This document shows positions 2,367-48,755 of a DNA stretch of 64,000 nt, in pieces; within the stretch, counting starts at the first letter, position 1; each line of letters opens with the position of its first letter. The DNA is from Thermoleophilia bacterium (lineage in GTDB: Bacteria > Actinomycetota > Thermoleophilia > BMS3ABIN01). Location: positions 6,032-70,031 of the forward strand of contig JBAZZU010000009.1 in NCBI GenBank assembly GCA_041658605.1, written 5' to 3'. The position numbers and the translations under genes were made by a program. The notes beneath the pieces were generated by a model. The model was given only the letters and a program-made list of their open reading frames with translations. It made no database searches and was not told the DNA's origin.

Positions 2367-3629
2367 TTATAACGGGTTATGCGTGTTTGGCACAGGCGTA
2401 GCCGGTCCGGGGTTCTGGCGCATGGCCATCAGAAGCACCAGCATGGCTGTCAGCCCCGTCGCCGCTCCAAAGAAGAACGGCGTCCGTGCTCCCGCCGCGT
2501 CCCATAAAAGGCCCGCGGTCAGGCTGGAAAAGAAAGTCAGTATGCCGGTAAGCGTATTGTAGGTGCCGAGAGCCGTGCCAGCAGCCTCACGCGGAGCCAT
2601 GTCGGCGACGAAAGCTTTCCCTACCCCTTCTGTCATCGCCATGTAGAGTCCATAGATGGTAAAGAGCGGCCAGACCGCCATTGAGTCACCGGCAAGAGCG
2701 AAGCCCAGATAGACCAGGGAAAAAACGAGGAAGCCCGCGGCGATCACGCGCCGCCGGCCGATGCGGTCCGACAGCGAGCCTGCCGGCATGGAAAAAACGC
2801 CGTATACAAGATTATAGATAACATAGGCAAAAACGGCTGCCATGGCTGAGAGCCCGAGGTCCCTGGCCCTGAGGATGATGAATGCGTCGCTGGAATTGCC
2901 GATTGCGAAGATGGCGCTGGCGAGCAGGAACAGTTTGAAGCGGCGGTCGAATTGCGACAGCGACAGGCGGGGCGGATGCCCGTGTGAGTGGTCGCGCTTT
3001 CTTTCGCGGATAAAAAAAAGACTGACTACGCCGAGTGCGCCGGGAATCGCCGAGAGGAGGAATATCGTGCGGTAGCGCTCCCCGATCAATGCCAGGGCTA
3101 CAAGCGCAAGCAGCGCCCCCAGCGAGGCGCCCGCCGTATCGGCCGCGCGGTGGAAGCCGAAGACACGGCCGCGGGTGGCCGGTTCCGATGAATCGGCGAT
3201 GAGCGCGTCGCGCGGCGCGACGCGAATCCCCTTCCCCAGCCGGTCGCCGAACCTCAGGGCGAGGACCATGGGCCAGGCAAAGGCGGCGGCCAGCAGCGGT
3301 TTGGCGACGGCGGAGATGCCGTACCCGATGATCGTCAGCGGCCTGCGCCGAGGCATGCGGTCCGACAGCCAGCCTGAGTAGACCTTGAGGATGCTGGCAG
3401 TGCTCTCAGCTATCCCCTCGATAAGGCCCACAACTGCGAAGGGAGCGCCGAGAACGGAGGTCAGGAAGAGCGGAACCAGCGGGTAGACGATCTCGCTGGA
3501 GAGGTCGGTAAGAAAGCTGGTTATTCCCAGGATGAAGACATTGCGGCTGATGCCGGGGACGGGAGATTCCGGATCGGGGTTTTTGGGAGGCGTCATATAA
3601 AAACTCCGGTTTCGACTTGAAGGGGACAC
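2367..3629 (-). CDS. MFS-family transporter
   Basis: About 12 predicted TM helices. Loop motif GWLSDRMPRRRP and a second DRIGRRR resemble MFS signature loops. The true start may be the internal Met (MTPPKNP) near 3596. Confidence 0.65.
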   Translation of the reverse strand: MSPSSRNRSFYMTPPKNPDPESPVPGISRNVFILGITSFLTDLSSEIVYPLVPLFLTSVLGAPFAVVGLIEGIAESTASILKVYSGWLSDRMPRRRPLTIIGYGISAVAKPLLAAAFAWPMVLALRFGDRLGKGIRVAPRDALIADSSEPATRGRVFGFHRAADTAGASLGALLALVALALIGERYRTIFLLSAIPGALGVVSLFFIRERKRDHSHGHPPRLSLSQFDRRFKLFLLASAIFAIGNSSDAFIILRARDLGLSAMAAVFAYVIYNLVYGVFSMPAGSLSDRIGRRRVIAAGFLVFSLVYLGFALAGDSMAVWPLFTIYGLYMAMTEGVGKAFVADMAPREAAGTALGTYNTLTGILTFFSSLTAGLLWDAAGARTPFFFGAATGLTAMLVLLMAMRQNPGPATPVPNTHNPL

Positions 3630-4413: not shown

Positions 4414-5901
4414 CTACTCCTGCCCCTGGGTGGCGTAATTGACGATCATCTGGTCTGTGAGCCATTCCACCGGAGCCTTGTCGTCGGTAAGGATAGTGCC
4501 TCCCGGCGGGACTTCCACAAGGCGCGGCGCCAGGAAACGCGCCAGTTTTGCCACTTCCGGTGGCATGACGCCGTCTCTGCCTGCAAGATCCGTCGCCAGT
4601 GTCTCCTCTCTGGTCGCTACGACCAGCTGATTGAACTGCCCGGTCTCGAACGTATATGCGGACGGGAAGACATCGCGCATCGTCGCCGCGATGGCATCGG
4701 CGACGGCGTTGTCCCCGGGGGTCTTTCCAACGTTAATAATGACGACGCCACGGTCGCTCAAGTGGTCGGAGATCTCACGGAAGAACTCGCGGGTCGTCAG
4801 GTAAAAAGGGATATAGGGTTGGCGGAAGGCGTCGACGGCGATGAGGTCCCAGGTCTTGTCGCTGGTCTTGAGGTAGGGCCGTCCGTCGGTCACGTGCAAT
4901 GTCAGGCCGGGCTCGTTCATGTCGAAGTACCTCCGGCCCGCCTCGACGACGTCGGGATCGATCTCAACCCCGTCGATTTTGATATCCGGGTAGAAATATG
5001 TCAGTTGCCGTGGTATGGTGCCGGCTGCGTTGCCGATGACGAGCGCGCTTTCGGGCGATTTGGCGGAAGCAAACCACGGGGCCACGCTGAAATAATCCCA
5101 GTAAGCTCCGGTCAGCAGCCGGTCCGGGTTATAGATGGAATGTACTGCCCAACCCTCGTTGAGTTTTAAATACCTGGTGCCGCTCTTCTCGGTGACCTGG
5201 ATGTAATGGTATGGAGACTCGGTTTCGAAGATGCTGCTGGCGTCCGGTTTGATCGCCCCCTGGGGTATTGCAATACCGGCAAGCAGGACAAGCGGGGCAC
5301 CGACGAAGATTCTGCGCCCCAGTCCTGCCGCTGAAACCGCCGCCAGCGCACCGGCGAAGACGAGCATCGTGTTCCTGGTCCCGATCCAGGGAATTAGCAA
5401 GAGCACCGGCAGGAATGTCCCCACGATGCTGCCGACCGTCGAGAGCGCGTAGAGGCTTCCGGAAACGTTGCCCGCGGTCTCGACCCCGGTCACCCGCAGG
5501 CGGATGGCGAACGGGGCCACCATCCCCAGGATGGTCACCGGAACGGCGAACAGGAGTACGGTGACGGCGAAAGATCCGATGAACGCGCCGGCTGAGATCT
5601 GCTCGAGTCCCCTGATGGCCAGCCCCATGATCGGGCGTGCGATAAAGGGAAGGATCGCGATGGACACGGCCGCCGCCATCGTCAGCGTGCATAGCAGGCG
5701 CGGTTCCGGCCTGCGGTCGGCGAGCCTGCCGCCGAGGTAGTAGCCCGCCGTGAGGTATATGAGGATCAGGCCGATCAGGTTGGCCCAGATGTAGAGGGAG
5801 TTGCCGAAGTACGGCGCCATCAGCCGCGAGGCCGACATCTCGGTGGCCATGGTCGTCATGCCGGCTGTGAATACCAGTATGTACAGCAGCGCGCGAGGCA
5901 A
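4414..5901 (-). CDS. Fused multi-TM domain / spermidine-synthase-like aminopropyltransferase
   Basis: N-terminal half has about 7 TM helices. C-terminal half has a SpeE-like fold (ALVIGNAAGT SAM-binding glycine-rich block, DLIAVDAF). This fused architecture is known in high-GC Gram-positives. Confidence 0.6.
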   Translation of the reverse strand: MPRALLYILVFTAGMTTMATEMSASRLMAPYFGNSLYIWANLIGLILIYLTAGYYLGGRLADRRPEPRLLCTLTMAAAVSIAILPFIARPIMGLAIRGLEQISAGAFIGSFAVTVLLFAVPVTILGMVAPFAIRLRVTGVETAGNVSGSLYALSTVGSIVGTFLPVLLLIPWIGTRNTMLVFAGALAAVSAAGLGRRIFVGAPLVLLAGIAIPQGAIKPDASSIFETESPYHYIQVTEKSGTRYLKLNEGWAVHSIYNPDRLLTGAYWDYFSVAPWFASAKSPESALVIGNAAGTIPRQLTYFYPDIKIDGVEIDPDVVEAGRRYFDMNEPGLTLHVTDGRPYLKTSDKTWDLIAVDAFRQPYIPFYLTTREFFREISDHLSDRGVVIINVGKTPGDNAVADAIAATMRDVFPSAYTFETGQFNQLVVATREETLATDLAGRDGVMPPEVAKLARFLAPRLVEVPPGGTILTDDKAPVEWLTDQMIVNYATQGQE

Positions 5902-6429: not shown

Positions 6430-6939
6430 TCAGGCGATCAGCCCGCCAACCTCTTCGGCGACCAGCTCACATACACGCCTGACCGCCGCTTCCACCGATG
6501 GAGAAAGACGCCGGTCGTCGGGGATGACGCTGGCCACCTGCACGGCGAAGACGATCACCTCGGGGTCGGCGCCCAGGAGGCGCGCGTTGGTCACGAGATG
6601 GGGCACGCCCATGCCGTGGATGTTGTTGGAGCGCAGGTTCATGACGTCGGCTTCGTCCGGGTTGAAGCGGAAGATGGCTCCGGGCTCGGCACTGGCGTCG
6701 ATTGCGTCGATCACCATGACCACATCGGAATCGAGGAAGTGTTTGAGCAGCCCCATGCCGGCGGTGTTGCCGATTACTACATTGACGTTCGGACCGAGGG
6801 CCTGAGCGTCAAGCTCCTCGACCACGAAGATGCCCAGGCCGTCATCACCCATGAGGGTGTTGCCGACGCCGAGGATGGTGACAGAGGGGGCGGCGCCTTC
6901 GGCGCCGCCCCCGTCGACTTTATTCAATTGATCCGGCAC
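6430..6939 (-). CDS. Hydrogenase maturation endopeptidase (HyaD/HybD/HupD family)
   Basis: ILGVGNTLMGDDGLG N-terminal motif, about 165 aa, final gene of a hydrogenase operon. Confidence 0.75.
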   Translation of the reverse strand: MPDQLNKVDGGGAEGAAPSVTILGVGNTLMGDDGLGIFVVEELDAQALGPNVNVVIGNTAGMGLLKHFLDSDVVMVIDAIDASAEPGAIFRFNPDEADVMNLRSNNIHGMGVPHLVTNARLLGADPEVIVFAVQVASVIPDDRRLSPSVEAAVRRVCELVAEEVGGLIA

Positions 6940-6991
6940 TCGCCCGGCCGCTCGCTGTTTTCCCGTTCGACGTTCCCAAACCGGATGGCAT

Positions 6992-7645
6992 TTATGACCG
7001 TTTCGGCGGCGCGTTCTTGCCCTCGCGCCAGGCGAACATCAGCGGCAGCTCACGCGCCACTTCGGCGATGACCAGATACAGGTGGATAGCCGCGGTACAG
7101 ATGAATATCCACATCAGCAGATAGTGGTAGCTCTTCATCGCCGCCAGGCCGCCCATCGAATATGTAAAGGATTCGAAGAAGGGCTTTGTCGGAGACCAGA
7201 GGCACAAGCCCGTAAGCGTTATCAGCGGTATGAATACAAACGCCCACAGGAGGTACATGCTCTTCTGCAGCGGGTTGAACTTGTATACCGAGGGGTACGT
7301 ATTGCGCAGGAACAGGTAGTACTTGATCGTATCCCGCGCGGTGCCCTCGCCCTCGTGTCTGAACAGGCTGAACCAGTGGTAGTCTTTTCTCTTCACGCGG
7401 CCTCCGGGCGGCGCCGAGCCGGCGCCGAAGAAAGCCCAGTAAATGCGGATAACGGTCGCGAACAGGAACGTCCACATCGCAACCTGATGAATAGATTCAG
7501 CATAACCCATGAAGCCGCTGAAGAACGGACTGTGGATATAGAAGCCCGTGAAGATCAGCAGCACCAGCGACACCATGTGAACAGCGTGCATGATGATAGC
7601 CGGCCGCGGGTGTTCTTCTCTTGTGGGCGGGATGCCTCTGGACAT
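6992..7645 (-). CDS. [NiFe]-hydrogenase b-type cytochrome subunit (HyaC/HupC-like)
   Basis: Four TM helices with conserved His residues, about 215 aa. The start is 7 nt downstream of the large-subunit stop. Confidence 0.75.
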   Translation of the reverse strand: MSRGIPPTREEHPRPAIIMHAVHMVSLVLLIFTGFYIHSPFFSGFMGYAESIHQVAMWTFLFATVIRIYWAFFGAGSAPPGGRVKRKDYHWFSLFRHEGEGTARDTIKYYLFLRNTYPSVYKFNPLQKSMYLLWAFVFIPLITLTGLCLWSPTKPFFESFTYSMGGLAAMKSYHYLLMWIFICTAAIHLYLVIAEVARELPLMFAWREGKNAPPKRS

Positions 7646-7651
7646 GGCCGC

Positions 7652-9280
7652 CTACCTTACCTGGAACTTGAGGACTTTGTTGGATTTCGGTTCAATCACG
7701 TGAACCGCGCACGCCATTCATGGATCGAATGTGTGAACGGTTCGCAATATCTCCAGCGGTTTGGCCGGATCGGCGACCGGTGTTCCAACCAGCGCTTCCT
7801 CGACCGGTCCCCGCACTCCCTTGTCGTCACGCGGTGACAGGTTCCAATTGGAGGGCGGCACCGCGGCATAGGTGTCGATCTTTTCGCCCTTTATCTTCGT
7901 GTAATGGGAAAGCGCGCCGCGCGGGGCGTCCCAGCCGCTCTGGCCGGTGCCGTCCTTGCTGAAATCGATCTCGTTGTAGACATTGGTCTCGCCCTTGCCG
8001 ATATTGTCGAGCAGCTCGTCGGCCCAGCGCAGGGCGTTGTCGGAATTCACCTTGGCCTTGATCACGCGCGCCGCGACCCGTCCGAGGTTGGAAAGCAACA
8101 CCGTCGGGTTTCCTGCCTGCCCGACAGCCGCCAGGGTATCGTCGACCAGCTTCTTGACCTCGGGCCTGCCCGCAAGGTATGCGACCAACACCTGGGCCAG
8201 CGGGCCGACTTCCATGGGCCTGTCTTCCTTGCCATAACGGACCGCCTGGGTCCAGTCGTACTTGCCCTCCGGCAGTCCCTCGCCTTCCATCGGCGGCATC
8301 TTTGTGAAATTGATCGGCTCCTGTCCTACGTCCAGCGGATGCTTGCCGGCGCCGACGCCGTCGTCGAACCAGGAGTGCTTGGTGTACTGCCGCACATCGT
8401 TGAGATCGACTTTCTCCAGCGCCAGCTTGCCGTCGAAAATGCCTCCGCGCGGGAAGAGCCGGTCGTACGGGTCCTGGCTTTTTTCGTCCAGAACGCCCCA
8501 GGTGAGGAAATTGCCGACGCCCTTGCCGTAGGTGGCAAGGTCGAGGTAATAGGGCGCGATGGCCAGCAGGTCGGGCACCATCACGGTGTCGATGAAGGTC
8601 TTGATGTCGGCCATCTGTGATTTGTAATACTCGATTTCCTCGATGCCGGGCATCTGCGTGACTCCACCCGGAACATAGTTGTTGATCATCGGATAGCGTC
8701 CGCCGAGCATGGCGCCGGCGTCGCAGGCTTTCTGCTGGATCTCCAGCGCCTGCAGGTAATGTGCCGTGATCTCAAGATCCATGTCCGGAGGCAGCATGTA
8801 GCCGGGGTGATCCCAGTACATGTTTGCGAAAGGCCCGAGCTGGCCGGAATCGACGATCGCCTTGACCTGCGCCTGAACCGCCTTGAGGCCGGGGGTCGTC
8901 GGATTTGCCTTGAGAGCGTTGGGTACGTTGACGTAATCGAAGCCGTTCAGCTGATAAAACCAGAGGATATGGTCATAACCCAGCTGTGTGGCCTCCATCA
9001 TGTTCCTGATGAGCCTGGCGCTGTCGGGCATCTTGTCCATCCCCATCGCCGTCTCTACGGCCCGCACCGAGTTGAAGGCGTGCGGCGTCGGGCAGACACC
9101 GCAGATGCGCTGGGCGAACTGCCATATACCCTTGGGATCACGGTTCTTCATGAAGATCTCAAAACCGCGGAACATCGTCGCTGTGTTCCAGGCGTCCGTT
9201 ACCTTGCCGTTCTCCACCGTGCAGGTGATTCGAAGGTGGCCTTCTATGCGTGTGATCGGATCGATGACTACTTTTGTCAT
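7652..9280 (-). CDS. [NiFeSe]-hydrogenase large subunit, with selenocysteine encoded by in-frame TGA at 7718-7720 (read-through to TAG at 7652-7654)
   Basis: N-terminal RICGVC nickel-binding motif. The ORF-caller stops at TGA after ...RTVHTFDP. Continuing in frame gives U-MACAVH-VIEPKSNKVLKFQVR-stop, which completes the C-terminal DPCxxCxxH motif with Sec at the first Cys. A 15-aa extension after His follows, the normal substrate for the maturation protease. A 7-bp-stem hairpin (plus 7688..7707) lies about 10 nt after the UGA. Confidence 0.7.
7688..7707 (-). promoter_or_regulatory. Candidate bacterial SECIS hairpin downstream of the UGA in the hydrogenase large-subunit mRNA
   Basis: mRNA CGGUUCA-CGUGAU-UGAACCG (7-bp stem, 6-nt loop containing GU) beginning 10 nt after UGA. 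Confidence 0.45.
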
Positions 9281-10402
9281 CTACTTACCTCCTTCTTTGG
9301 AGCCTGGTTCTTCTTCCTTGCCTTCAACGGGGGCTCCCTTAAACAGCCTTCCCGTCGCGGCCTGACCGACGAAATGAGCGCCGATACCTACTGCCGTGGC
9401 CGCTCCGAGCGCGACGCCGACCTGAGTGGGTGTGATGTCGCCAGGTAATCTGATGCCCGGCGCTTTTTCATAGAATGGTGATTGCTTGTCCCAGAAGTCC
9501 GGCTCGGAGCAACCGATACACGGACCGCCGGCAGCAACCGGCCAGGAGACATTGCCGTTATAGCGCGTTTTGGGACAGGGACCGTAGGTTACGGGCCCCT
9601 TGCAGCCGACCTTGTAGAGGCACCAGTTGTTGGCCGAGCCCTCATCACCAAATTGCTCCACGAACTCGCCGGCGTCGAAGTGGCCCCGGCGATCGCAGTC
9701 GTCATGGATCAGATGTCCGAAGAGGAACTTGGGCCGCCCCAGGTCGTCCAGCTCCGGCAGCTGCTTTTTGACGAGCACGTAGAGCAGGATGGCCACGGTG
9801 TCGTCTGCGTTGCCCGGGCAGCGCGGTGAGTTGATGACCACGGGATCCTTGATGCCAGCATCTTCTCTAAGGAAGTCGGCAACACCCTTGGCGCCGGTGG
9901 GGTTGGGTTTCGCCGCCTGGATGCCGCCATAGCAGGCACAGGTGCCGATGGCGATGGTAGCTTTGGCCTTCTGGTAGGCATCCTTGCACATCTCCATCGA
10001 TGTCATGCCGCCAATCGTGCAGGCATCAGGAATACCGGTGGCTATGCCGCCCTCCACAATATAATAGAAATCCTTGGAGTCAACGATTTCGTGGAAACTT
10101 CTTTTCGCCTCGCTGCCGGCGGCGGCCATGACCGCTTCATGGTAATCGAGGGAGATCTGCTGCAGGATCAGGTTGGCGGGTCCGGGTTTGCGCATCTGGA
10201 GCAGGTTGACCGAACAGCCGAGACACTCCTGGAAGCAGGACCACACGATCGAGGGCCGCTTCGCCAGCTGCTGCAGCGCGTTTGCGACCTTGGGCGCCGC
10301 CATCGGACCGCTGAGCCCTATCACGGCAGCGAGCGCGCCACAGGTCTTGAGGAAATCTCTTCGTGATAACCCGGGGAACAGGGACATCTCTTCGTGTTCC
10401 AA
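9281..10402 (-). CDS. [NiFe]-hydrogenase small subunit with twin-arginine signal peptide
   Basis: SRRDFLK Tat motif, multiple Cys clusters for proximal, medial and distal FeS clusters. The stop TAG directly abuts the ATG of the large subunit. Confidence 0.85.
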   Translation of the reverse strand: MEHEEMSLFPGLSRRDFLKTCGALAAVIGLSGPMAAPKVANALQQLAKRPSIVWSCFQECLGCSVNLLQMRKPGPANLILQQISLDYHEAVMAAAGSEAKRSFHEIVDSKDFYYIVEGGIATGIPDACTIGGMTSMEMCKDAYQKAKATIAIGTCACYGGIQAAKPNPTGAKGVADFLREDAGIKDPVVINSPRCPGNADDTVAILLYVLVKKQLPELDDLGRPKFLFGHLIHDDCDRRGHFDAGEFVEQFGDEGSANNWCLYKVGCKGPVTYGPCPKTRYNGNVSWPVAAGGPCIGCSEPDFWDKQSPFYEKAPGIRLPGDITPTQVGVALGAATAVGIGAHFVGQAATGRLFKGAPVEGKEEEPGSKEGGK

Positions 10403-19745: not shown

Positions 19746-21008
19746 TTAATGCGCCGCGCAGGAGACGCAGGGGTCATACGCGCGGACCAGGCATTCGATG
19801 CCCTCTATCAAACGGGAGGGCTCCCAGTCCCGGCGCGCGTCGACAAAATGGTTGATATCATCCTCGATATTTGTCAGATTCTGGGCGGTCGGGGTTATTA
19901 TGTTGTCGTCAGCGATGAGCCCTTCGGCGTCAAGCGTATACGAATGGTAGAGGGTGCCACGAGGCGCCTCGGTCGCCGCCACGCCGGTACCGGCTCGCAC
20001 CTGGATCTCTCCGGGCGTGGGATCACTGTCGAGGCCGGTTTCGAGCAGGCCGTCGATCAGGCTGATCGATTCCACCATGGCGTGCACCAGCTCCACGGAC
20101 TGACAGAAGCTGTTGAGGAATGTGTTGTAATTCGGGAAGGCATGGCCTGATTCGTCCAGTATGCTTCTGGCGCTGTCCTCCAGGAGCTCGTGGTTCATGT
20201 TCACCCTCGCCAGGGCCCCGGTAAAAAACCCTCTGCCGGCATGGACGCCGGCTTTTGCCGCCGTGCCGGGTATGACTTTCTCGCGCAGCGTCGCGCAGAA
20301 GTCTTCGGGCGTTGAACAGTAGCCCTCGCTGGAACAGATATCACCGCCGTAATAGGCGTACTCTTTCTCATCATGGAGGGCCAGATATGTGGTCTTGCGG
20401 GAAAAGTCCGGCATCGACAGCCCACCCACTATGCGTGCAAGTCTGGCGGCTTCGGGCAAGGCTTCCTCAAGGCGCCTGCGCAGATCGGCGAGCCGGGTCA
20501 CGGGCGGCAGATGGCTGAAACCGCCGACCCTGGTCGTTATCGGGTGAACCGAGCGCCCGCCGATAACATTGACCATGTCGTTGCCGAGCTTTTTCAACAG
20601 CAGCGCCGATGCAACTTCATCGGGGTGCGTATTCGCCATGGTGAAGGCGCTCTCGGCGCCGAGGAAATCTGGCAGAACGAGGAAATAGACATGGAGCGAA
20701 TGGCTTTGTATCCATTGCGCCAGGATCATCAGCCGGCGGAGGCTGTCCGTGACTGGTCTGGTTTTGACATCGAGGGCGGCCTCCACGGCTTTGAGAGCCG
20801 TGACATTGTGGACCGACGGGCAGACACCGCAGATGCGTGAGGCGATCGTGGGCGCGTCGAAGAATTTGCGGCCCCGCAGAAGGCCCTCGAAAAGCCGCGC
20901 CCCCTCCTCGTACTTGAGTCTGGCGGAGTGAACCCGGCCTTCGGCCACCATCACGGTGAGCGACGCGTGACCTTCGATCCTGGTGACGTGTTCGAGTTTG
21001 ATCTTCAA
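19746..21008 (-). CDS. Cytoplasmic group-3 [NiFe]-hydrogenase large (alpha) subunit
   Basis: RICGVCP N-terminal and DPCVSCAAH C-terminal Ni-ligand motifs with no cleavable extension, about 420 aa. The start is TTG at 21006-21008, with an upstream in-frame stop and no obvious SD. Confidence 0.75.
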   Translation of the reverse strand: MKIKLEHVTRIEGHASLTVMVAEGRVHSARLKYEEGARLFEGLLRGRKFFDAPTIASRICGVCPSVHNVTALKAVEAALDVKTRPVTDSLRRLMILAQWIQSHSLHVYFLVLPDFLGAESAFTMANTHPDEVASALLLKKLGNDMVNVIGGRSVHPITTRVGGFSHLPPVTRLADLRRRLEEALPEAARLARIVGGLSMPDFSRKTTYLALHDEKEYAYYGGDICSSEGYCSTPEDFCATLREKVIPGTAAKAGVHAGRGFFTGALARVNMNHELLEDSARSILDESGHAFPNYNTFLNSFCQSVELVHAMVESISLIDGLLETGLDSDPTPGEIQVRAGTGVAATEAPRGTLYHSYTLDAEGLIADDNIITPTAQNLTNIEDDINHFVDARRDWEPSRLIEGIECLVRAYDPCVSCAAH

Positions 21009-21951
21009 TGAAAGCCGATTATGAAATGATTATCAATACCAACCATTCAAATATTTTTGTGCGGCTTGAAATACCCCCACCGAGGATTCATAAACAAAAA
21101 GAGGAAAAAAGAGCCACAAGGTGAAACAGGAATGATCATCCATTGCGTTCTATTTTGGCGCACCCAAGTAAGAACAAAGGCCTAAAATTCGAAAAACTCA
21201 AGTGTAAGTTAAGACTTTAGTGATAGCTCGCTGTATTCATACAAAGCTTCAAAAGGAAGTTGGCAATCCTTTTCGATTTGTTCGCGGCCACCCTCTTCTC
21301 GATCAACTAAAGCAAATGCCATTACGGGGTCTAAACCTTCGTCACGACACGTATTTATTGCTTTTATAATTGAACCACCACTGGTGACTACGTCATCAAC
21401 TATAGCTACACGCATACCCTTTTCAACAGGACCTTCTATCCAAAGATGAGTCCCATGTTTTTTCGGTTCTTTTCTTACAATAAAACCTGAAACTGGGTAG
21501 TTCATCAGGAAGCTGCAAGTAACAATGCCGGCTACTATTGGATCTGCTCCAATGGTTAGCCCACCGACATTATGGACATTTTTCTCTTGAAGCTTAAAAA
21601 CCAACAGCCTGGATAAAAGCGTTAGTCCTTCAGGATCTAGTGTTATCTTTTTGCAATCGAAGTAGTGATCGCTTTTTTTCCCGGATGAAAGCGTAAACTC
21701 ACCTTCTAGGTAGGCTTTTTCTCTGATGAGTTTACCTAAGCGTGATTTTATTGTTTCAAAATCGTTCAACTGGGGTTTTGCTGATTGGAAAGCATACTGT
21801 TTAATGGTGGCAGTATTTAATGCCAATTCAGCCTCCTCCTAGGGAATTTCTATCTTTTTAAGAGTATCTTAAAAAACTTGGCATGCCAAGGCTTCAGCTC
21901 ATATTGGTATTCTGTGCTAATAGTAGCAGCCCTTTAAAAAGCACACACACA
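21009..21951. other. AT-rich insertion (compositional island) between the hydrogenase delta and alpha genes
   Basis: Long A/T runs and AT-rich codons in the PRTase gene and both flanks, contrasting with GC-rich neighbours on each side. Confidence 0.6.
21209..21826 (-). CDS. Type I phosphoribosyltransferase (orotate-PRTase-like) encoded in an AT-rich insertion
   Basis: VAIVDDVVTSGGSI PRPP-binding motif. Gene and flanks (about 21010-21950) are visibly AT-rich against GC-rich surroundings. Confidence 0.6.
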   Translation of the reverse strand: MALNTATIKQYAFQSAKPQLNDFETIKSRLGKLIREKAYLEGEFTLSSGKKSDHYFDCKKITLDPEGLTLLSRLLVFKLQEKNVHNVGGLTIGADPIVAGIVTCSFLMNYPVSGFIVRKEPKKHGTHLWIEGPVEKGMRVAIVDDVVTSGGSIIKAINTCRDEGLDPVMAFALVDREEGGREQIEKDCQLPFEALYEYSELSLKS

Positions 21952-22755
21952 CTAATGATTTTCTTCGCGCCACTGATCGAAAAGCTCCTGGTATTCGGGC
22001 ACAAGGGAACAGTACTTCTGCAGCTTGCGGACGAGGTCGGGATACGTGGTATCGCGCGACATGATCTGAATAGCCGATTTCAGGTTCGGCTCCTCGGTCG
22101 GCCCGCGGCAGCCGTCACACGGAACTCCCATGGAAGGGCAGACTACTCCGCAACCGGCCCGCGTGATGGGTCCAAGGCATGGTTGCCTCTCGATCAGCAG
22201 GCAGCGGTTTTCCAGCACCTTGCATTCGACGCATTGTGGATAGGCTTTCAGCTGCGGTGTCCGCCCCGCGATCAGTGCGGTCAGTGTCTCCATGATCTCC
22301 CACTTGCTGGCGGGGCATCCCCGGAGCTGAAAATCGACGCGGACGTAGTTGGAAACAGGATATATTTCAAGAGTGTCCAGGTCCTCCATGCCCTTGTAGA
22401 CATACTTCTTCATGTCCTTGAGGTCATGGAAATGCTGTGCCGCCGGGACTCCGCCAAAGGAAGCGCAGCTTCCCAGCGCCACCAGCAGTTTCGAGTTGCG
22501 CCTGACGTCCCGCAACACCTCGGGCTCGAAGGACCTCGCGGGCACCCCTTCCACGAAGGCCACGTCGAAAGGGCCGTCGGTATTGTACGCCCTCGCCATG
22601 GGAAAGTGCAGGATGTCAACCGCACGGGCAATGGCAAGGAGGTCGTCCTCGAAGTTGAGGAACTCGAGCGCGCAGCCAGCGTCGGAGGTGAGCGAAAAGA
22701 TGCCGACCTTCAGCCTGCCCCGATGAGCCGCGGATGAACCGTCCCGGTATGTCAT
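21952..22755 (-). CDS. Group-3 [NiFe]-hydrogenase small (delta) subunit
   Basis: NuoB/hydrogenase-small-subunit-like Cys pattern (GSCASFGG, GCP, multiple CxxC). The ATG at 22755 overlaps the upstream gene stop as ATGA. Confidence 0.7.
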   Translation of the reverse strand: MTYRDGSSAAHRGRLKVGIFSLTSDAGCALEFLNFEDDLLAIARAVDILHFPMARAYNTDGPFDVAFVEGVPARSFEPEVLRDVRRNSKLLVALGSCASFGGVPAAQHFHDLKDMKKYVYKGMEDLDTLEIYPVSNYVRVDFQLRGCPASKWEIMETLTALIAGRTPQLKAYPQCVECKVLENRCLLIERQPCLGPITRAGCGVVCPSMGVPCDGCRGPTEEPNLKSAIQIMSRDTTYPDLVRKLQKYCSLVPEYQELFDQWREENH

Positions 22756-23615
22756 CTCAGCGCTGACGATATCCCCCTGATCTGTTCGATTGAAAGGACC
22801 GGCCCCTGGCGGCAGGTATAAAAACTCTCCACGACGCAATGCTCACACTTGCCGACGCCGCATCGCATGTTCCTCTCCAGGGATACATAGATCTGCGAAT
22901 CGGCAAAACCGATTTCCTGCAGCCGGTCGAGGACGAACCTGAACATCACCGGCGGACCGCAGATCAGCACCTGCGTATCGATCGGCGAGAGGTCGACGAC
23001 ATCGAAAAGCGAGGTGATGAGGCCGGTTCTTCCATGCCAGTCCGGCGTGGCCTCCTCGACGGCAATCTCAAGGCGGCAGCACTGGCGCCACTCTTCATAT
23101 TCGTCCCGGAAAAGCAGCTGGTCCGGGCTTCTGGCTCCATACAGCACCGTCAGCCCTCCGAATTCCTTTTCCAGGCAGACGGCGTTCTTTATGGCGCTTC
23201 GCAGGGGGGAAAGGCCGATGCCTCCGGCGATAAAGACCAGGTTCTGGCCACCCATTTCTGAAAGGGGAAAGCCCCGTCCGTAGGGTCCCCTCACCCAGAC
23301 CGTATCGTCCTGCGCGAGCCGGTGCAGGGCCCGGGTGACATTGCCGGTCTCACGCACGCAAAGCTCGAATGTTCCCTTCTGGGTCGGCGGTGAGCATATC
23401 GCGAAGGGCGCCTCGCCGATGCCCAGCAGGGATGTCTGAACGAACTGGCCGGCGGAGAACGAAAATGACTCGCGTAGCTGCGGGTCCTTGAACTGCAGCA
23501 CGAAGTGACGGTTCCCGGGTGTAAGCAGCCGTGTTTCCAGCACCCGCGCCGGGCTGGGGATATACTCGTTCAGCCGCGTTTCCCCGAAAGAGTTACCCGC
23601 AGCTTCAGCGTCCAT
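22752..23615 (-). CDS. Hydrogenase gamma subunit: FAD/NAD(P)-binding oxidoreductase with C-terminal [2Fe-2S] (HydG-like)
   Basis: Ferredoxin-NADP-reductase-like fold motifs plus C-terminal CGVGKCEHC cluster, as in sulfhydrogenase gamma and PyrK-like subunits. Confidence 0.7.
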   Translation of the reverse strand: MDAEAAGNSFGETRLNEYIPSPARVLETRLLTPGNRHFVLQFKDPQLRESFSFSAGQFVQTSLLGIGEAPFAICSPPTQKGTFELCVRETGNVTRALHRLAQDDTVWVRGPYGRGFPLSEMGGQNLVFIAGGIGLSPLRSAIKNAVCLEKEFGGLTVLYGARSPDQLLFRDEYEEWRQCCRLEIAVEEATPDWHGRTGLITSLFDVVDLSPIDTQVLICGPPVMFRFVLDRLQEIGFADSQIYVSLERNMRCGVGKCEHCVVESFYTCRQGPVLSIEQIRGISSALR

Positions 23616-24711
23616 CGGTCACCTCCAGCACGCTTTTGATAACCTGGCGCGGATCTATCGCCGCGGGGCAGAAATGGAAGCAGGCGCCGCAGCCCGAGCA
23701 GCCGGCGCGATCGAACGTTTCCTGCATCCTCATGAACTTGTGTGAGAAGCGGTACCAGATGCGCTCGGATCGGGCCTCGCGGAAGTTATGGCCGCCGGCA
23801 ACGCGCGCAAAACCGATGAGCTGGCAAGAATCCCAATGCCTCAGCCGGTGTCCGGCGGTCGGGTCCAGGCCGGTCTCGTCCCGGGTATAGAAGCAGTAAC
23901 ACAGGGGGCAGACAATGGTGCAGTTGCCGCATCCCAGGCAGCGGTCGGCCAGTTCATCCCACATGACGGCCCCCATCGACTGTCTGATCTTTTCCGGCAG
24001 CGCCGCCAGGGGCCAGCGTATCTCGTTCCCGCTTTCTTCACCGGGAGGCGCCGAAATCCCGGCAGGTTCCTCCAGGACACTCACGGGAGCGCCGGCGACA
24101 AGCCTGGCGCCGGCCTCTGTGCCGACGATCATGCGCAGGTCGCCGTTTGATGCCCCCATGGACGCCGGCACAAGGAAAAGGTCAAAATCGCCCGGACCCA
24201 CATGATCATGACCTGTTTTTTCACAGAAACATCCTTCTGTGCGTTCGCAGGGAACACCGATGGTGATCGTTCTGCGACGCCGCTCCATGAACGGGAAGTC
24301 AGGCCGGTCGTTCTCCATGACGGTGGCAAGCAGCCTGTCGGCGGAAAGCTCGCAGACATGGAGGCCGAACAGGATGGTATCTTCCGCGTGGAGGTCCTGC
24401 AGAAGAGAGCCGCCCTCAAAGCTGAAAAGTGTCTCCGACGGTGGCAGTAATGCCTTTTTGAAGGGAATCACAGTCCGGCTTTGAGGGAGGTCGACACCTG
24501 TGAGGCCCAACGGCGACACATCCTCGAAGATACGGTTACCGGCCTTGTACGACGGCACCAGCACCCTGTAGTCGGATGAAAGATCCATCAGCCACCGCCG
24601 CAACTCCGGCGGCAGGGTGCTTCCCGGAAAGATGTTTCCCGCTTTTTTGACCATCCACAGCCTTTCATCCGGTTTATTCATCGTGCTGCTTCGTGTTGGC
24701 GTCGTACACAA
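23605..24711 (-). CDS. Hydrogenase beta subunit: 4Fe-4S protein (HydB / AsrA-like)
   Basis: CLGCGNCTIVCPLCYC and CSGCGACFHFCP ferredoxin-type motifs. First gene of the beta-gamma-delta-alpha set. The true start may be the internal ATG at 24681. Confidence 0.65.
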   Translation of the reverse strand: MCTTPTRSSTMNKPDERLWMVKKAGNIFPGSTLPPELRRWLMDLSSDYRVLVPSYKAGNRIFEDVSPLGLTGVDLPQSRTVIPFKKALLPPSETLFSFEGGSLLQDLHAEDTILFGLHVCELSADRLLATVMENDRPDFPFMERRRRTITIGVPCERTEGCFCEKTGHDHVGPGDFDLFLVPASMGASNGDLRMIVGTEAGARLVAGAPVSVLEEPAGISAPPGEESGNEIRWPLAALPEKIRQSMGAVMWDELADRCLGCGNCTIVCPLCYCFYTRDETGLDPTAGHRLRHWDSCQLIGFARVAGGHNFREARSERIWYRFSHKFMRMQETFDRAGCSGCGACFHFCPAAIDPRQVIKSVLEVTDGR

Positions 24712-28238: not shown

Positions 28239-28583
28239 TTAGAACGATGCGGGATGGTCGCTGACGAACCTCAGCAGGTCCTGATTTCCTACCAGCACGA
28301 GGAAAAGATCGACGGTCAGAGGAGCGAACACCAGTGCCTGGCCGGGCAGCTCGAGCGTCATCCTGGGAAGATCCGTGCCCAGTTCACAGGCAAGGCTGGC
28401 GGCTGAAGACATGGCGGAGGCCGTATGGGCGGCGATGGCCTCCAGATTGCTGTTATCTCCGGTCGAAGCGACCAGCAGCCCGTCAGCCGAGACGAGCGCC
28501 GCCGCCGCGATTCCTTCGATGTCCATGTACGGCGTCAGCACGTTATCCAGAGCGCGCGACGCTGTTCTTCCGCTATCCGTCAT
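28239..28583 (-). CDS. Roadblock/LC7 domain protein (MglB-like)
   Basis: About 114 aa with the alpha-beta roadblock pattern (IEGIAAAALVSADGLLVAS). Immediately downstream of parB. Confidence 0.55.
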   Translation of the reverse strand: MTDSGRTASRALDNVLTPYMDIEGIAAAALVSADGLLVASTGDNSNLEAIAAHTASAMSSAASLACELGTDLPRMTLELPGQALVFAPLTVDLFLVLVGNQDLLRFVSDHPASF

Positions 28584-29482
28584 CGTTCCTTCTCCAGGAC
28601 TTCTATCAGCTTGTCAAGATCATCCGCGTTTGAGAATTCCATTTCGATTCTTCCTCCCTTCCCGGTCCATCTGACCTTGACCGGGAGACGGAAAGCTGAA
28701 TAAAGAGCGTCAGTCGTCTCGTCCATCAACTCCTGACCTACCGGGAAATTCTGGGGCTCTTTCAATTTGCTCCGGGGAGCATCCTCCTTTTTCGACAGCT
28801 CCTCGGCCTGCCTGACCGACAGTCCTCCCTTGACGATCCTGCGCGCAAGCTTTCGCTGTCGCGTCCTGTCGGAAACGGAAAGCAGGGCGCGACCATGTCC
28901 CTCGGTCAATTTAGCCTGCTCGATCAATTGCTGAACATCATCGGGAAGGTCGAGCAGCCTGATGGTGTTGGCTACGGCTGAGCGGCTGCGGCCCAGTTTA
29001 TTGGACAGCATTTCCTGGGTGATACCGTAATCTTCCTGAAGGTTGGCGTAAGCCCTGGCCGTGTCGATCGGGTTGAGGTCCTCACGGCTGATGTTTTCGA
29101 TAAGCGCGAGCTCGAGGGACTCCGCGTCCCCGGCTTCCCGGATCAGAGCGGGCACTGTCTCAAGACCGGCGATCCGCGCCGCGCGCCAGCGTCTTTCTCC
29201 GGCCACGAGCTCGTAACCGTCTCCCCGCTTGCGAACAACCACCGGCTGGACCAGGCCGACGGCGCGGATCGACTCCGCAAGCTCCTCGAGCGCGTCATCG
29301 TCGAAGATCGTACGGGGCTGATGCGGGTTGCCGGTAATTTGACTTAAAGATAATACGTGATACGGTGACTCATGCCCGGGCGAAACAGGTGCTTGACCTA
29401 CAGTATCATCCTTGTTTGTACTTATCAGCGCGGACAGGCCTCGGCCGAGGCCCTTGCTCGCCGGTTTCTTTTCGTTATTCAC
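28580..29482 (-). CDS. parB: Chromosome partitioning protein ParB/Spo0J
   Basis: GLGRGLSALI box, HTH region, ParB/Sulfiredoxin fold motifs. GTG start at 29482 preceded by GGAGGTGG. Overlaps parA stop. Confidence 0.8.
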   Translation of the reverse strand: MNNEKKPASKGLGRGLSALISTNKDDTVGQAPVSPGHESPYHVLSLSQITGNPHQPRTIFDDDALEELAESIRAVGLVQPVVVRKRGDGYELVAGERRWRAARIAGLETVPALIREAGDAESLELALIENISREDLNPIDTARAYANLQEDYGITQEMLSNKLGRSRSAVANTIRLLDLPDDVQQLIEQAKLTEGHGRALLSVSDRTRQRKLARRIVKGGLSVRQAEELSKKEDAPRSKLKEPQNFPVGQELMDETTDALYSAFRLPVKVRWTGKGGRIEMEFSNADDLDKLIEVLEKER

Positions 29483-30263
29483 GTTCGACCACCTCCGTAG
29501 CCAGATCAAAGTAGGCGTCAGAGCCCGCGCAGGTAGGGTCGTAACGCGAAATCGGTTTACCAAAACTCGGCGCTTCGCTCAACCTGATGTTGCGAGGTAT
29601 CACGGTCCTGTAGGTAAGCTCGGGGAAATGGGAGCGCACCTCATCGACGACCTGGGTGGAAAGTCTGGTGCGCGAGTCGAACATGGTCATCAGCAGGCCG
29701 GCTATCTGCAGCCCGGGGTTCAGTCCCTGGCGTACAAGCTCGACGGTCTGCAGCAGCTGGCCGAGTCCTTCCAGGGCGTAATATTCACATTGGACCGGTA
29801 TTATGAGCTTATCAGCAGCGACAAGCGCGTTAAGTGTTATGAGCCCCAGCGAAGGCGGGCAGTCAACAAAAATGTAGTCAAAATTGCCCCTGACTGTTGC
29901 CAGTGCGTCCGCGAGCACGAACTCCCGGCGCTCGCGTCCGGGCAATTCGACTTCGGCGCCGGCAAGGTCAGGAGTGGACGGGACGAGAACCAGCTGGTCG
30001 ACCTGGGTGGGCAGAATAGCCGAGTCAATTGACGCCCCATTGGTAAAGACATCGTAAATAGTGCTGTTACCAGCATAATCGTGTATTCCAAGACCATGGG
30101 TGGCATTGCATTGGGGGTCAGAATCAACAAGAAGGACCGCCGCGCCAGCCTCAGCCAGGCACACGGCAGTGTTTACACAGGTGGTAGTCTTGCCGACGCC
30201 GCCCTTCTGATTTGCGATGGCGTAGATCTTGCTTAATCCGGATCTTGCGTTTAAATCCTGCAT
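29475..30263 (-). CDS. parA: ParA/Soj chromosome partitioning ATPase
   Basis: Deviant Walker A KGGVGKTT, about 262 aa. Confidence 0.85.
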   Translation of the reverse strand: MQDLNARSGLSKIYAIANQKGGVGKTTTCVNTAVCLAEAGAAVLLVDSDPQCNATHGLGIHDYAGNSTIYDVFTNGASIDSAILPTQVDQLVLVPSTPDLAGAEVELPGRERREFVLADALATVRGNFDYIFVDCPPSLGLITLNALVAADKLIIPVQCEYYALEGLGQLLQTVELVRQGLNPGLQIAGLLMTMFDSRTRLSTQVVDEVRSHFPELTYRTVIPRNIRLSEAPSFGKPISRYDPTCAGSDAYFDLATEVVERE

Positions 30264-30295
30264 AAAGGCAGTCTATCAGAAGCACCGGACGGTGA

Positions 30296-31000
30296 CTAGA
30301 AATCGCCGAGCGGCCTTTTTCTGGCTACGCCTGGCCTGCGCGGAAAGCGTTCCGGCGTGGGTGAAGTTTTGGAAAAAACCCAGATATGGAGGTTCTTTGC
30401 GTCGGAATAGGGCTTTACAGACCCGATGCGGACCAGGGTTCCCCCAAGGAGCTCAGCCACCTGACAAGCCTGTTTTTCATCACCGGGGCTGCGGTCTCCA
30501 CGCTGCAGCAGCGCCGAACCGCCTGTTTTCAGTAACGGAAAACAATACTCCAGAACCTCCGCTATCGAACCGACGGCTCGCGCAAAGGCAATATCGAAAG
30601 TAGCTCTCATTTCTGATCGGCCCGCGTCTTCGGCCCGCGAGGCAAGGACAAAGGCGTTGTCGAGCCCAAGTTTCATTACTGTTTTCTCAATAAACTCGCA
30701 TTTCTTTCGCCTGGCCTCAATCATGGTGACGTTCAGGGATGGGACCGCGATTGCGAGCGGCAACCCCGGAAAGCCGGCGCCGCTGCCGATGTCGACCGCA
30801 GATTCAGCCGACTTCGTCTCTGGGAAATCGGCAAGGCCGAGACTGTCGCGAAAATGTATCGCTACTATATTTGCCGGCTCTGTGACCGCGGTGAGGTTTC
30901 TGTCAGACTGCTCTGTAAGCAAATCAAGCAGTTTCTCAAATGAGGCGATCTGCGAAGCGTCAAGGTGGAAATCGGATCCCAGGGAGGATTGCCAGGTCAT
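30296..31000 (-). CDS. rsmG: 16S rRNA (guanine527-N7)-methyltransferase RsmG (GidB)
   Basis: SAM-MTase motif [15 protein letters not shown] and conserved position after mnmG. Confidence 0.8.
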
Positions 31001-32889: not shown

Positions 32890-32913
32890 TGCTGCTGTTC
32901 CTGATTTATTTTT

Positions 32914-33990
32914 TTAGCAACCTGGATCATCTGTCCTGACAGTTACAGGTCGCGATTTCTGATCGGTGATCCGCTGGCAGAGTTTCTTAACAAATTTAGT
33001 ATCAGTTATCAAAACACCGGGGTCATGCCCGCTCTGTCGCGCGGCTGCTCCCCTGCCGGCCAGCAGGCCAAGAGTCGCCGCCTCGAGATAGTTACAGCTG
33101 CCTGCAGCGCGCCCAGCAATAAAAAGGCCCGGATTTGCCCGCGACTCCAGGTTCGCGTCTACCTGGTCAGCGGCAAGCACATGGTGGTAGACGGAATAGG
33201 AGGGCCGTGTGATCCAGGCGTCCGAAAGCCCCGCATGTTCTCGCAGCAGTCGCAGCTGGTTTTCGCGGTTGCCTCGCGACTCCAAACCATAGCCAAGTAT
33301 CTCACCAAGCTGCCGGCCATCCAGGAGGAGGCGAAGGCCGTTACTTGACCAGTAATCATTATTTTGGTCTATAGTGCGGCAGTCCAGATCGGGCATTGTG
33401 CCCGCCCATACCTCGATCATCTGTAATCCCGCTATTTGCAGGCAATTTGTCAGCGCGTTGGCGGGTATTTCACCGATTCGCCCACCGGGAACGACCGCTC
33501 CTCCATCGTCGACTCTGGCCTTAAGGAATGTGCCAGCCGTGATGACGACGGCCGCGGCGGAAAAACGTTCCCCCAGTTTTGTGCCGACCATCCAGCCATC
33601 CGCGGAAGGCTCCAGCGAAGTTACCAGCGCCTGCCTTGATTCCAGGCCAGCCTCATTTTCCAGCATCTCCTTGTAGGCCAGCCCGAGCAGGCGCCTGTCG
33701 ACAGATAGCCTCCCTTCCGGCTCGCTGTCTATGACAACCCCGTCCAGGGCGAGCGCATCCGGGAGCCTGCCGCCCAGTGCGGACATTTCCTTAAACAGCG
33801 AAACGCGAGGATCGCCCGGTCCATCGATCAGAGAGGGAGTCGCCGGCGGATAGCCGGCCATGTCGAGATTAATGGTGAGGCAAAGGGTGTGCGCTCCAGC
33901 CCCGGCGGCGGCCATGGATGCTTCACAACCAGCCGGCCCGGCGCCAATAACAATCACATCGTATGCAGGAATGTCGATCGCGTCATTCAC
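32914..33990 (-). CDS. Short MnmG/GidA-family FAD-binding paralog (N-terminal domain only)
   Basis: VIVIGAGPAGCEAS FAD-binding motif and a GidA-like N-terminal domain, but only about 358 aa and lacking the C-terminal tRNA/MnmE-interaction domain. Confidence 0.5.
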   Translation of the reverse strand: MNDAIDIPAYDVIVIGAGPAGCEASMAAAGAGAHTLCLTINLDMAGYPPATPSLIDGPGDPRVSLFKEMSALGGRLPDALALDGVVIDSEPEGRLSVDRRLLGLAYKEMLENEAGLESRQALVTSLEPSADGWMVGTKLGERFSAAAVVITAGTFLKARVDDGGAVVPGGRIGEIPANALTNCLQIAGLQMIEVWAGTMPDLDCRTIDQNNDYWSSNGLRLLLDGRQLGEILGYGLESRGNRENQLRLLREHAGLSDAWITRPSYSVYHHVLAADQVDANLESRANPGLFIAGRAAGSCNYLEAATLGLLAGRGAAARQSGHDPGVLITDTKFVKKLCQRITDQKSRPVTVRTDDPGC

Positions 33991-34007
33991 AAAAAAACCG
34001 CGGGCTC

Positions 34008-48026: not shown

Positions 48027-48755
48027 TTTTCACACACCTATATAGTTATCGTTAGTACACGTTGCTTTTAGATTACTGCAAATTTCATGCCAAAGTAGGG
48101 TTTTCTTTACAGACGTGATTGTGGCCGCGAAATTTCAGTGTTAAAACGCCAGGATCTCAAAACCAATGCAAATTTCTGTGTTAAATCATACACTCGGTTG
48201 TGGCATTTGGCGTAGATTCGTATGTGGATTGCAGATCCCACCTACCTTTCTTCTTTCATTATGGATGTTAAGCGCATTCGCCTCGCCCTGCTTCTGTGCT
48301 ATTAAAAGGAGCATTCAGGTCAGGTTTTTAGTTTCTTCGGGGTTATCTTCTTGAATAATTCAAAAGTTGGCACGATTTCTGCTCTTTAGGAACGTGAAAG
48401 CGTTTATTTGTTCCTTCACTCTTCGGTCTGGGTCAAATGTTCGCTTTTTCATCATCCTCCGGCTCCGGCTAACCACCGGAGCCTTACAGACAGCCGGTTA
48501 ACGCACCCCCCAGTTTCAGCGCCGGAGAATATAGACCCAGCTGAAGACTTTCTGAAATTGAGACAAAGACTGGGAATGGTGTTGCGATCGGATTGCTGCT
48601 TCCTCGAATCCAAATAATTCGCATCAAGCCTTTCCCCAAAGTCAGAGATGTCTGAAGCTACCTGGATATGCTTTTTGGGAGGTGGTAATTGAAAAATTGA
48701 ATGACCGGATAGGAGCTTTTACCTATTGCGAGTTCTAGAAAACGAAGGAGTGAAA

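Follow-up and report, generated by a model that had tools for sequence, protein, structure and literature searches.

The DNA analysed (the window) is a 64,000-nucleotide (64 kb) stretch of contig JBAZZU010000009.1 from a Thermoleophilia bacterium (GenBank assembly GCA_041658605.1). On its minus strand it carries a hydrogenase operon in which the large-subunit gene contains an in-frame UGA codon that is very probably decoded as selenocysteine (Sec). The operon (10402..6430) was annotated with NCBIfam models and comprises, in order, the genes for a small subunit, a large subunit, a b-type cytochrome and a maturation protease (Table 1); the same gene order recurs in the loci of relatives. The small subunit adjoins the large subunit and bears a twin-arginine translocation (TAT) signal (SRRDFLK; TIGR01409 at residues 12–42), as in group 1 respiratory uptake hydrogenases. 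Its C-terminus is hydrophobic and aligns to the membrane-anchor region of Escherichia coli HyaA (the alignment reaching residue 369 of the small subunit), and the closest solved chain is 1H2A_S of Desulfovibrio vulgaris Miyazaki. The small-subunit stop codon (TAG 9283–9281) abuts the ATG of the large-subunit gene in the same frame (..GGT AAG TAG ATG ACA..), and a GGAGG ribosome-binding sequence for the large subunit lies within the last small-subunit codons. PF01292 is present in the orthologous loci of the cytochrome b gene, and the protease gene ends with an ordinary TGA. Judged from its genes, the anatomy of the operon is that of a membrane-bound, outward-facing, quinone-reducing H2-uptake hydrogenase; a preliminary description made from the letters of the window had likewise called it an uptake hydrogenase, and the TAT-signal small subunit, the cytochrome b and the protease bear this out.

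The uninterrupted open reading frame (ORF) of the large subunit (9280..7721, minus strand) starts with ATG at 9280, encodes 520 residues and ends in ...LEILRTVHTFDP (TVHTFDP), with codon 520 (Pro) at 7723–7721. Beyond the TGA that follows, the frame continues with ATG GCG TGC GCG GTT CAC (MACAVH) and VIEPKSNKVLKFQVR to a TAG at 7654–7652, with 21 sense codons between the UGA and this second stop. The frame was re-derived identically to that of the preliminary description, which had read U-M-A-C-A-V-H and 15 further residues between the TGA at 7718–7720 and the TAG at 7652. The ATG of the cytochrome b gene was confirmed at 7645, leaving 6 nt between the extended stop and this start; such close spacing fits the read-through, as had been argued. 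GenBank entry MFA5801660.1 (‘MAG: nickel-dependent hydrogenase large subunit [Thermoleophilia bacterium]’; MAG, metagenome-assembled genome) is exactly the 520-residue product, and the public record is therefore a truncated call, in line with the earlier claim that the gene had been mis-called.

The RxCGxC motif of group 1 [NiFe] large subunits (PF00374) is present near the N-terminus, while the C-terminal DPCxxCxxH motif and cleaved extension of this family are found only when the UGA is read through. The UGA then falls on the first Cys of the C-terminal motif, which is the defining feature of [NiFeSe] enzymes. In an alignment to solved structures, residues 4–541 of the read-through product matched the precursor of the D. 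fructosovorans large subunit (1FRF_L) with 445 bits; residues 521–541 matched CIACGVHVIEPETNEILKFKV, and within the 15-residue tail VIEPETNEILKFKV of the 564-residue precursor stood opposite VIEPKSNKVLKFQV. Mature chains of the D. fructosovorans enzyme stop at ...ACGVH (549 residues, compared with 564 in the precursor), and the 15-residue tail is therefore homologous to the peptide removed on maturation. The earlier proposals that read-through restores DPCxxCxxH with the TGA at its first Cys, that this is the Sec position of characterized [NiFeSe] enzymes and that the tail is a maturation-protease substrate agree with the alignment to DPCIACGVH of 1FRF_L, with the placement of the motif, and with the tail homology together with the HyaD/HybD-type protease gene in the operon, respectively.

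Table 1. Positions of the hydrogenase features in the window.
Feature	Position	Strand	Basis or remark
Hydrogenase small subunit	9281..10402	-	TIGR00391 hydA, 339.7 bits
Recoded large-subunit ORF, full	7652..9280	-	542 codons including predicted Sec521, plus stop TAG 7654-7652
N-terminal Ni/Fe ligand motif R58-I-C60-G-V-C63	9092..9109	-	Columns invariant in 20-homologue alignment
C-terminal active-site motif D519-P-U521-M-A-C524-A-V-H527 (predicted)	7700..7726	-	Aligned to DPCIACGVH of 1FRF_L
In-frame UGA, codon 521, predicted Sec and Ni ligand	7720-7718	-	Conserved TGA in relatives
Candidate SECIS hairpin CGGUUCA / loop CGUGAU / UGAACCG	7688..7707	-	SECIS geometry and conservation
C-terminal extension V528-R542 (VIEPKSNKVLKFQVR), with predicted protease cleavage after His527	7655..7699	-	Homology to 1FRF_L tail
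Ni/Fe-hydrogenase b-type cytochrome subunit, quinone-reducing partner	6992..7645	-	TIGR02125, 102.4 bits, below cut-off of 121.5
HyaD/HybD-family maturation endopeptidase	6430..6939	-	TIGR00072, 113.6 bits, above cut-off
Group 3b hydrogenase beta subunit	24711..23605	-	
Group 3b hydrogenase gamma subunit	23615..22752	-	
Group 3b hydrogenase delta subunit	about 22839..21952	-	
Group 3b hydrogenase alpha subunit	21008..19746	-	

Protein relatives were taken as the best 120 clusters (61–98% identity, almost all ∼520 residues, covering 96% of the read-through query). The C-terminus reads ...H(T/S)(F/Y)D(P/A) in all 120 and DPCxxCxxH occurs in none; where sources are named they are MAGs of Thermoleophilia, Candidatus Aquicultor, Coriobacteriia or ‘Actinobacteria’. 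At the DNA level, TGA at codon 521 followed in frame by (M/I)AC(A/S)VH was found in 19 of 19 genome-derived loci (16 genome loci and three found by exact protein look-up), with the second stop 21 codons on in the 17 of these that have a traceable frame. Nearly all metagenome loci show the same distance; it is a few codons longer in L063 and L064. Among 80 metagenome loci, the codon is TGA in all 39 listed at ≥41% identity and TGT or TGC in all 28 listed at ≤38% identity. In total, TGA stands at codon 521 in 45/45 distinct related sequences (41–96% identity; Sec-type sequences in the following), in which the same frame and a hairpin recur. The codon in close relatives had been named beforehand as a possible ground for refuting the read-through; every locus at ≥41% identity has TGA, and Cys codons occur only at ≤38% identity.

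Synonymous variation with unchanged amino acids was seen among the 45 distinct Sec-type sequences at codons +2, +3 and +11 to +21, counted from the UGA: Ala +2 is encoded by GCG (13), GCT (14), GCC (11) and GCA (5), Val +20 by four codons and Arg +21 by five. Such a pattern marks the region after the UGA as translated. Wherever the DNA of a Sec-type locus extends far enough, a cytochrome b gene follows the large-subunit gene immediately, whereas distant Cys-type loci lack it. A search of 1.84 billion cluster representatives was performed with the 520-residue ORF as query, and the Cys or Sec type was inferred from the extension of the target past the match. Here the Sec-type group corresponded to one 50% cluster (P0088), and the nearest full-length Cys-type relative was P0121 from Nitrospirota (50% identity, ...DPCLACTVHVIHPESNRIMDFKVA). 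A rough neighbour-joining tree, calculated without support values, placed the window inside a monophyletic Sec-type clade, at the base of which two more Sec-type groups are interleaved with the Cys-type P0121 and P0122.

Two peculiarities were seen among the homologues. Locus L016 (2980–3120), from a MAG labelled Deltaproteobacteria, reads DA-UGA-IACAVH and has the same hairpin 5′ arm, and after the hairpin its frame enters a helix–hairpin–helix-like sequence (LPGVGRYIAGAV) instead of the usual tail, with cytochrome b still downstream; a frameshift or chimeric assembly is the probable cause. Several large subunits (P0037, P0040, P0046, P0049, P0052, P0055, P0056, P0070, P0073 and P0079, and L018 at 3001–3130) carry a Thr/Pro/Ser-rich low-complexity N-terminal extension of 40–60 residues, located between the small-subunit stop and the conserved protein start. 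The carriers with a named source are Coriobacteriia, and an extension of this kind is unusual for a hydrogenase large subunit.

Downstream of the UGA lies a hairpin that is a candidate bacterial selenocysteine insertion sequence (SECIS). It consists of a 5′ arm CGGTTCA (7707–7701), a loop CGTGAT (7700–7695) and a 3′ arm TGAACCG (7694–7688); the stem begins 10 nt and the apical loop 17 nt after the UGA, and loop positions 2 and 3 are occupied by G and U. Published criteria for bacterial SECIS elements are a loop of 3–9 nt, a stem of 4–16 bp, a G in loop positions 1–2, a spacing of 16–37 nt and an energy of ≤−7.5 kcal mol−1 (PMC13188914). With its 7 bp stem, 6 nt loop (CGUGAU), 17 nt spacing and −8.1 kcal mol−1 the hairpin lies within all of these limits. 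The preliminary description had reported a 7 bp stem 10 nt past the UGA, placed like a SECIS, and had proposed a SECIS check near 7660–7720; the exact position was confirmed, and the check under the strict published criteria was passed. The SECIS is made of Ala-Val-His-Val-Ile-Glu-Pro codons (AVHVIEP) and hence overlaps both the final residue of the active site and the predicted point of protease cleavage.

When the strict test was applied to relatives, 39 of 46 Sec-type sequences passed at the identical position (loop start 17 nt after the UGA), and in the remaining seven the hairpin persists in a weaker or variant form, L016 among them with only 5 bp of the stem left. Only three of the 25 Cys-type sequences passed, each at another position, and a hairpin at this place is absent from all 25; these counts are not independent trials, as the sequences are related. 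Loss of the hairpin from orthologous loci was a further ground for refutation named beforehand, and it is instead retained in the Sec-type sequences. Codons +4 to +10, which form the hairpin, show an entropy of 0–0.6 bit and almost no synonymous variation in the 45 distinct sequences (GTT 42/45, CAC 45/45, GTG 44/44, ATT 42/42, GAA 42/42), compared with a median of about 1.5 bit (few at 0.4–0.6) for the 25 codons before the UGA and with about 0.4–2.4 bit for most flanking codons. In L019, L037 and L039 both amino acids and bases have changed (VHVMDG/A) and the RNA still folds as CCGUCCA-CGUGA-UGGACGG (stem of 6–7 bp, same loop), which gives two compensated pairs in the structural alignment.

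Variants of the hairpin were also noted in individual relatives. In L012 (Candidatus Aquicultor, 4424–4470) the loop is CUUGAU, the G at loop position 2 being replaced by U (Val to Leu); this is the sole Sec-type sequence without a G in the first two loop positions, and it fails the strict test. In L029, L032, L040, L047 and L050 (1–45 nt after the UGA) the stem is lengthened by a lower helix (for example GUGCUCGGUUCA...UGAACCGGAGCAC, −18.8 kcal mol−1), whereas the version in the window has the 7 bp upper stem only.

Taken together, the position of the UGA, the conserved frame beyond it and the hairpin make it very probable that this codon is decoded as Sec, serving as a nickel ligand, and not as a stop. 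Several results weigh against this reading. The best NCBIfam model for the large subunit is NF033181 (NiFeSe_hydrog; 486.8 bits over residues 1–539, cut-off 600), and the HysA model NF045518 gave 362.1 bits (cut-off 780), so that both NiFeSe models score the protein under their curated cut-offs. No SelA, SelB or SelD was found among 46 ORFs of the 64 kb window in NCBIfam scans, ARAGORN detected no tRNA in the window, hence no tRNA-Sec, and no tRNA-Sec in 46 related loci. A crude SECIS scan of every long-ORF TGA revealed no second selenoprotein gene in the window; of its ten hits, only that in the hydrogenase gene is in the frame of a recognized gene. An 81 nt stretch showed no unusual stability when its folding was compared with that of shuffled sequence (z = +0.7), and the support for the hairpin is therefore comparative and not thermodynamic. 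No Rfam match to the hairpin was obtained, either for the whole window at the gathering threshold or for 7560–7800 under permissive settings; the Rfam SECIS models do not cover it. Finally, the hairpin coincides with the conserved AVHVIEP codons and is nearly invariant, and classical same-register covariation is consequently scarce. With regard to the host, Sec decoding has been documented in Actinobacteria, for example in Rubrobacter xylanophilus (PMC1794560), which makes the trait plausible in the phylum Actinomycetota.

Weak NCBIfam hits to TsoB and SsnA in the window were not regarded as evidence. The former involves a 600-residue ORF (35691–37493, plus strand) for which TsoB, a rhodanese/DsbD fusion-like selenoprotein, gave 46.6 bits over its C-terminal portion (cut-off 805); nothing suggests that this ORF is itself a selenoprotein, as it has no in-frame upstream TGA context and overlaps other long ORFs.

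Three other explanations of the UGA were weighed. Decoding as an amino acid other than Sec (Cys or Trp, by a reassigned code, near-cognate suppression or a Cys-loaded tRNA-Sec) is unlikely, although the DNA does not reveal which amino acid is inserted and the window has yielded no Sec machinery. Of 37 genes in the window confirmed by family models, 11 end with TGA, among them that of the operon's protease, so that there is no global reassignment and the recoding is site-specific; in addition, a position-specific hairpin with SECIS hallmarks lies at the right distance, and UGA at this ligand encodes Sec in every characterized [NiFeSe] enzyme (PMC13582414).

A split subunit resembling VhuA/VhuU of Methanococcus voltae, in which a separate 21-residue peptide (MACAVH...) translated from the ATG after the TGA would supply Cys and His in trans, is very unlikely. 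In the window, as in 42 of 45 relatives, the codon next to the TGA is indeed ATG, and split large subunits exist in nature (NCBIfam VhuU model). The M. voltae hydrogenase large subunit is split, with Sec inside the small peptide VhuU; by contrast, the peptide considered here would leave the first position of the motif without its nickel ligand. Moreover, Ile (ATT or ATA) replaces the ATG in four Sec-type loci (L016, L059, L061 and L063), and the conserved SECIS-like hairpin would be unexplained. That the TGA is a true stop, the gene a truncated and inactive pseudogene without two metal ligands and the downstream sequence a decaying remnant is likewise very unlikely and is contradicted by the comparison of relatives: gene callers and GenBank (MFA5801660.1) do give 520 residues, and no Sec machinery was found within the window, but the same TGA and 21-codon frame occur in 45 distinct sequences at 41–96% identity, synonymous changes with conserved amino acids are unexpected of a decaying remnant, and both the stop 21 codons later and the tight cytochrome b junction are conserved.

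If the UGA is decoded as Sec, expression of the enzyme may be pictured as follows. The hairpin at 7707–7688, acting as a bacterial SECIS as its anatomy and conservation suggest, would recruit SelB with Sec-tRNA(Sec), and the UGA at 7720–7718 would be read as Sec521 instead of stop. The 21 further codons would supply Cys524 and His527 and, by homology, complete the DP-U-xxC-xxH motif; Sec521 and Cys524, together with Cys60 and Cys63, would bind the Ni–Fe centre. From what is known of the family, the HyaD/HybD-type protease of the operon would cut behind His527 once the metal is inserted, releasing the 15-residue tail; the small-subunit TAT signal would direct export of the dimer, which the C-terminal helix of that subunit would hold in the membrane; and electrons would pass from H2 through the Fe–S clusters and cytochrome b to the quinone pool. 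By analogy with HysAB, selenium at the nickel would probably raise activity or resistance to oxidative damage.

The periplasmic [NiFeSe] hydrogenases HysAB (D. vulgaris, Desulfomicrobium baculatum; HydDB group 1a; PDB entries 2WPN, 5JSH and 1CC1) share with the window enzyme a UGA-encoded Sec at the first position of DP(U)xxCxxH, an in-coding SECIS just past the UGA, a TAT-signal small subunit and a dedicated maturation protease. The two differ in that HysAB lacks the cytochrome b gene and the small-subunit membrane anchor and comes from a sulfate reducer, the host of the window enzyme being a member of the Actinomycetota. The window large subunit matches HysA structures with about 255–270 bits and the D. 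fructosovorans [NiFe] enzyme with 445 bits, and the small subunit scores about 162–185 bits against the HysAB type and 308 bits against standard [NiFe] enzymes. The HysA proteins put forward as comparators in the preliminary description thus share the Sec site with the window enzyme but are not its nearest relatives; standard group 1 [NiFe] enzymes are closer, and the window enzyme is linked to cytochrome b. In work by Garcin from 1999, HysB reportedly has three [4Fe-4S] clusters, and in HysAB-type enzymes Cys is said, by Garcin and in the 1998 work of Rousset, to replace the Pro238 equivalent at a medial [4Fe-4S] cluster. In the window small subunit the Pro beside the medial cluster is retained (...NVSWPVAAGGPCIGC, aligned to ‘NWP’ of D. 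vulgaris Miyazaki), and a [3Fe-4S] medial cluster is therefore predicted, as opposed to the [4Fe-4S] of HysB. With neither the Cys in place of the Pro238 equivalent nor the absence of cytochrome b that mark the HysAB type, the enzyme is a predicted [NiFeSe] hydrogenase that falls outside the HysAB type.

Among solved structures, both subunits come nearest to those of the standard periplasmic [NiFe] hydrogenases (D. fructosovorans, D. vulgaris Miyazaki and D. gigas; group 1b; PDB entries 1FRF, 1H2A and 2FRV). Their C-terminal motif and cleaved tail are nearly identical to those of the window enzyme; however, they have Cys in place of the UGA, are soluble, reduce cytochrome c3 and lack a cytochrome b subunit. 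The E. coli Hyd-2 large subunit matches that of the window with 392 bits. The membrane-bound, cytochrome b-linked uptake hydrogenases E. coli Hyd-1 (HyaABC) and Cupriavidus MBH (298–330 bits for the large subunit) resemble the window enzyme in having a TAT-exported dimer, a small-subunit C-terminal anchor and a b-type cytochrome, but are all Cys enzymes; the proximal-cluster motif in the window is the standard ECxGC and not the six-Cys O2-tolerant type. HydDB group 1i, the ‘Coriobacteria-type’, is described as having genes for a small subunit, a large subunit, cytochrome b and a protease, and occurs in Actinomycetota (PMC9686372); both gene set and phylum equal those of the window operon, and Coriobacteriia MAG homologues (61–65% identity) have operon and UGA in common with it. 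The best 120 hits of two homologue searches included no cultured Coriobacteriia and no cultured group 1i organism such as Eggerthella or Anaerosoma, the second search, seeded with a Coriobacteriia relative, having returned essentially the same uncultured set; membership of the window enzyme in group 1i is therefore unproven.

In HydDB, [NiFeSe] variants are listed in groups 1a, 3a and 3c only (PMC5037454), and according to a 2026 review [NiFeSe] enzymes are confined to sulfate reducers and methanogens (PMC13188914). Sec-containing Group 4 [NiFe] hydrogenases were reported in silico in 2026, Sec having earlier been known only in Groups 1 and 3 (PMC13582414). Like the gene described here, they had escaped notice because UGA was taken for a stop codon, until read-through analysis revealed them, and their SECIS elements share the conserved G in the first two loop positions; unlike in those enzymes, the predicted Sec in the window lies in a group 1 uptake enzyme and at its canonical C-terminal site.

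Recoding by UGA and SECIS at the nickel-ligand Cys is itself already known and textbook, and the conceptual advance is accordingly modest. What is apparently undescribed is a sizeable, mis-annotated clade of cytochrome b-linked hydrogenases of uncultured Actinomycetota in which a predicted Sec sits on the standard [NiFe] scaffold. A literature search revealed no account of it, which is weak evidence as most subscription journals were outside its coverage. It seems probable, though with appreciable doubt, that these genes represent an unrecognized lineage of membrane-anchored [NiFeSe] uptake hydrogenases linked to cytochrome b, mainly from uncultured Gram-positive Actinomycetota (MAGs of Thermoleophilia, Candidatus Aquicultor and Coriobacteriia), with sister Sec groups in other metagenomic lineages sharing one homologous SECIS. 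The origin of the lineage would lie in standard group 1 [NiFe] enzymes and be independent of that of HysAB; the lineage would have kept the [3Fe-4S] medial cluster and would have reverted to Cys at least once (Nitrospirota P0121), all of its members being annotated as truncated.

If this is true, the statement that [NiFeSe] enzymes occur only in sulfate reducers and methanogens is incorrect. At least 120 protein clusters are stored publicly without their last two metal ligands and are missed by the curated NCBI NiFeSe models, and surveys of hydrogenases and of selenoproteins would therefore misjudge them. With this gene, the known range of [NiFeSe] hydrogenases would come to include Actinomycetota of the subsurface and of sediments, as well as a quinone-linked architecture containing cytochrome b. 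Enzymes of the [NiFeSe] type are valued for their high H2-production activity and fast recovery from O2. Sec on a standard [NiFe] scaffold, apparently with a [3Fe-4S] cluster, could help to separate the effect of selenium from other features specific to HysAB.

Elsewhere in the window, a second hydrogenase of group 3b (sulfhydrogenase-like) is encoded at 19746–24711 on the minus strand (Table 1). It is of the Cys type, with its C-terminus exactly at the His (...RAYDPCVSCAAH*). Oddly, a pyrE-like ORF (21826..21209; TIGR00336, 126 bits) separates the delta gene from the alpha gene. An origin-proximal gene set (28580–35390, minus strand) comprises parB/noc-like, parA, rsmG, mnmG and mnmE genes, and a short second mnmG-like ORF (33990..32914, 358 residues) matches parts of MnmG only. 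Two further genes are unexpected for a Thermoleophilia MAG: a homologue of split-Soret cytochrome c (48726–49667, plus strand; 121 bits, below the cut-off), a family known from Desulfovibrio, and a topoisomerase I gene (60445–62628, plus strand) for which the best model is the archaeal-type NF005555 (914 bits).

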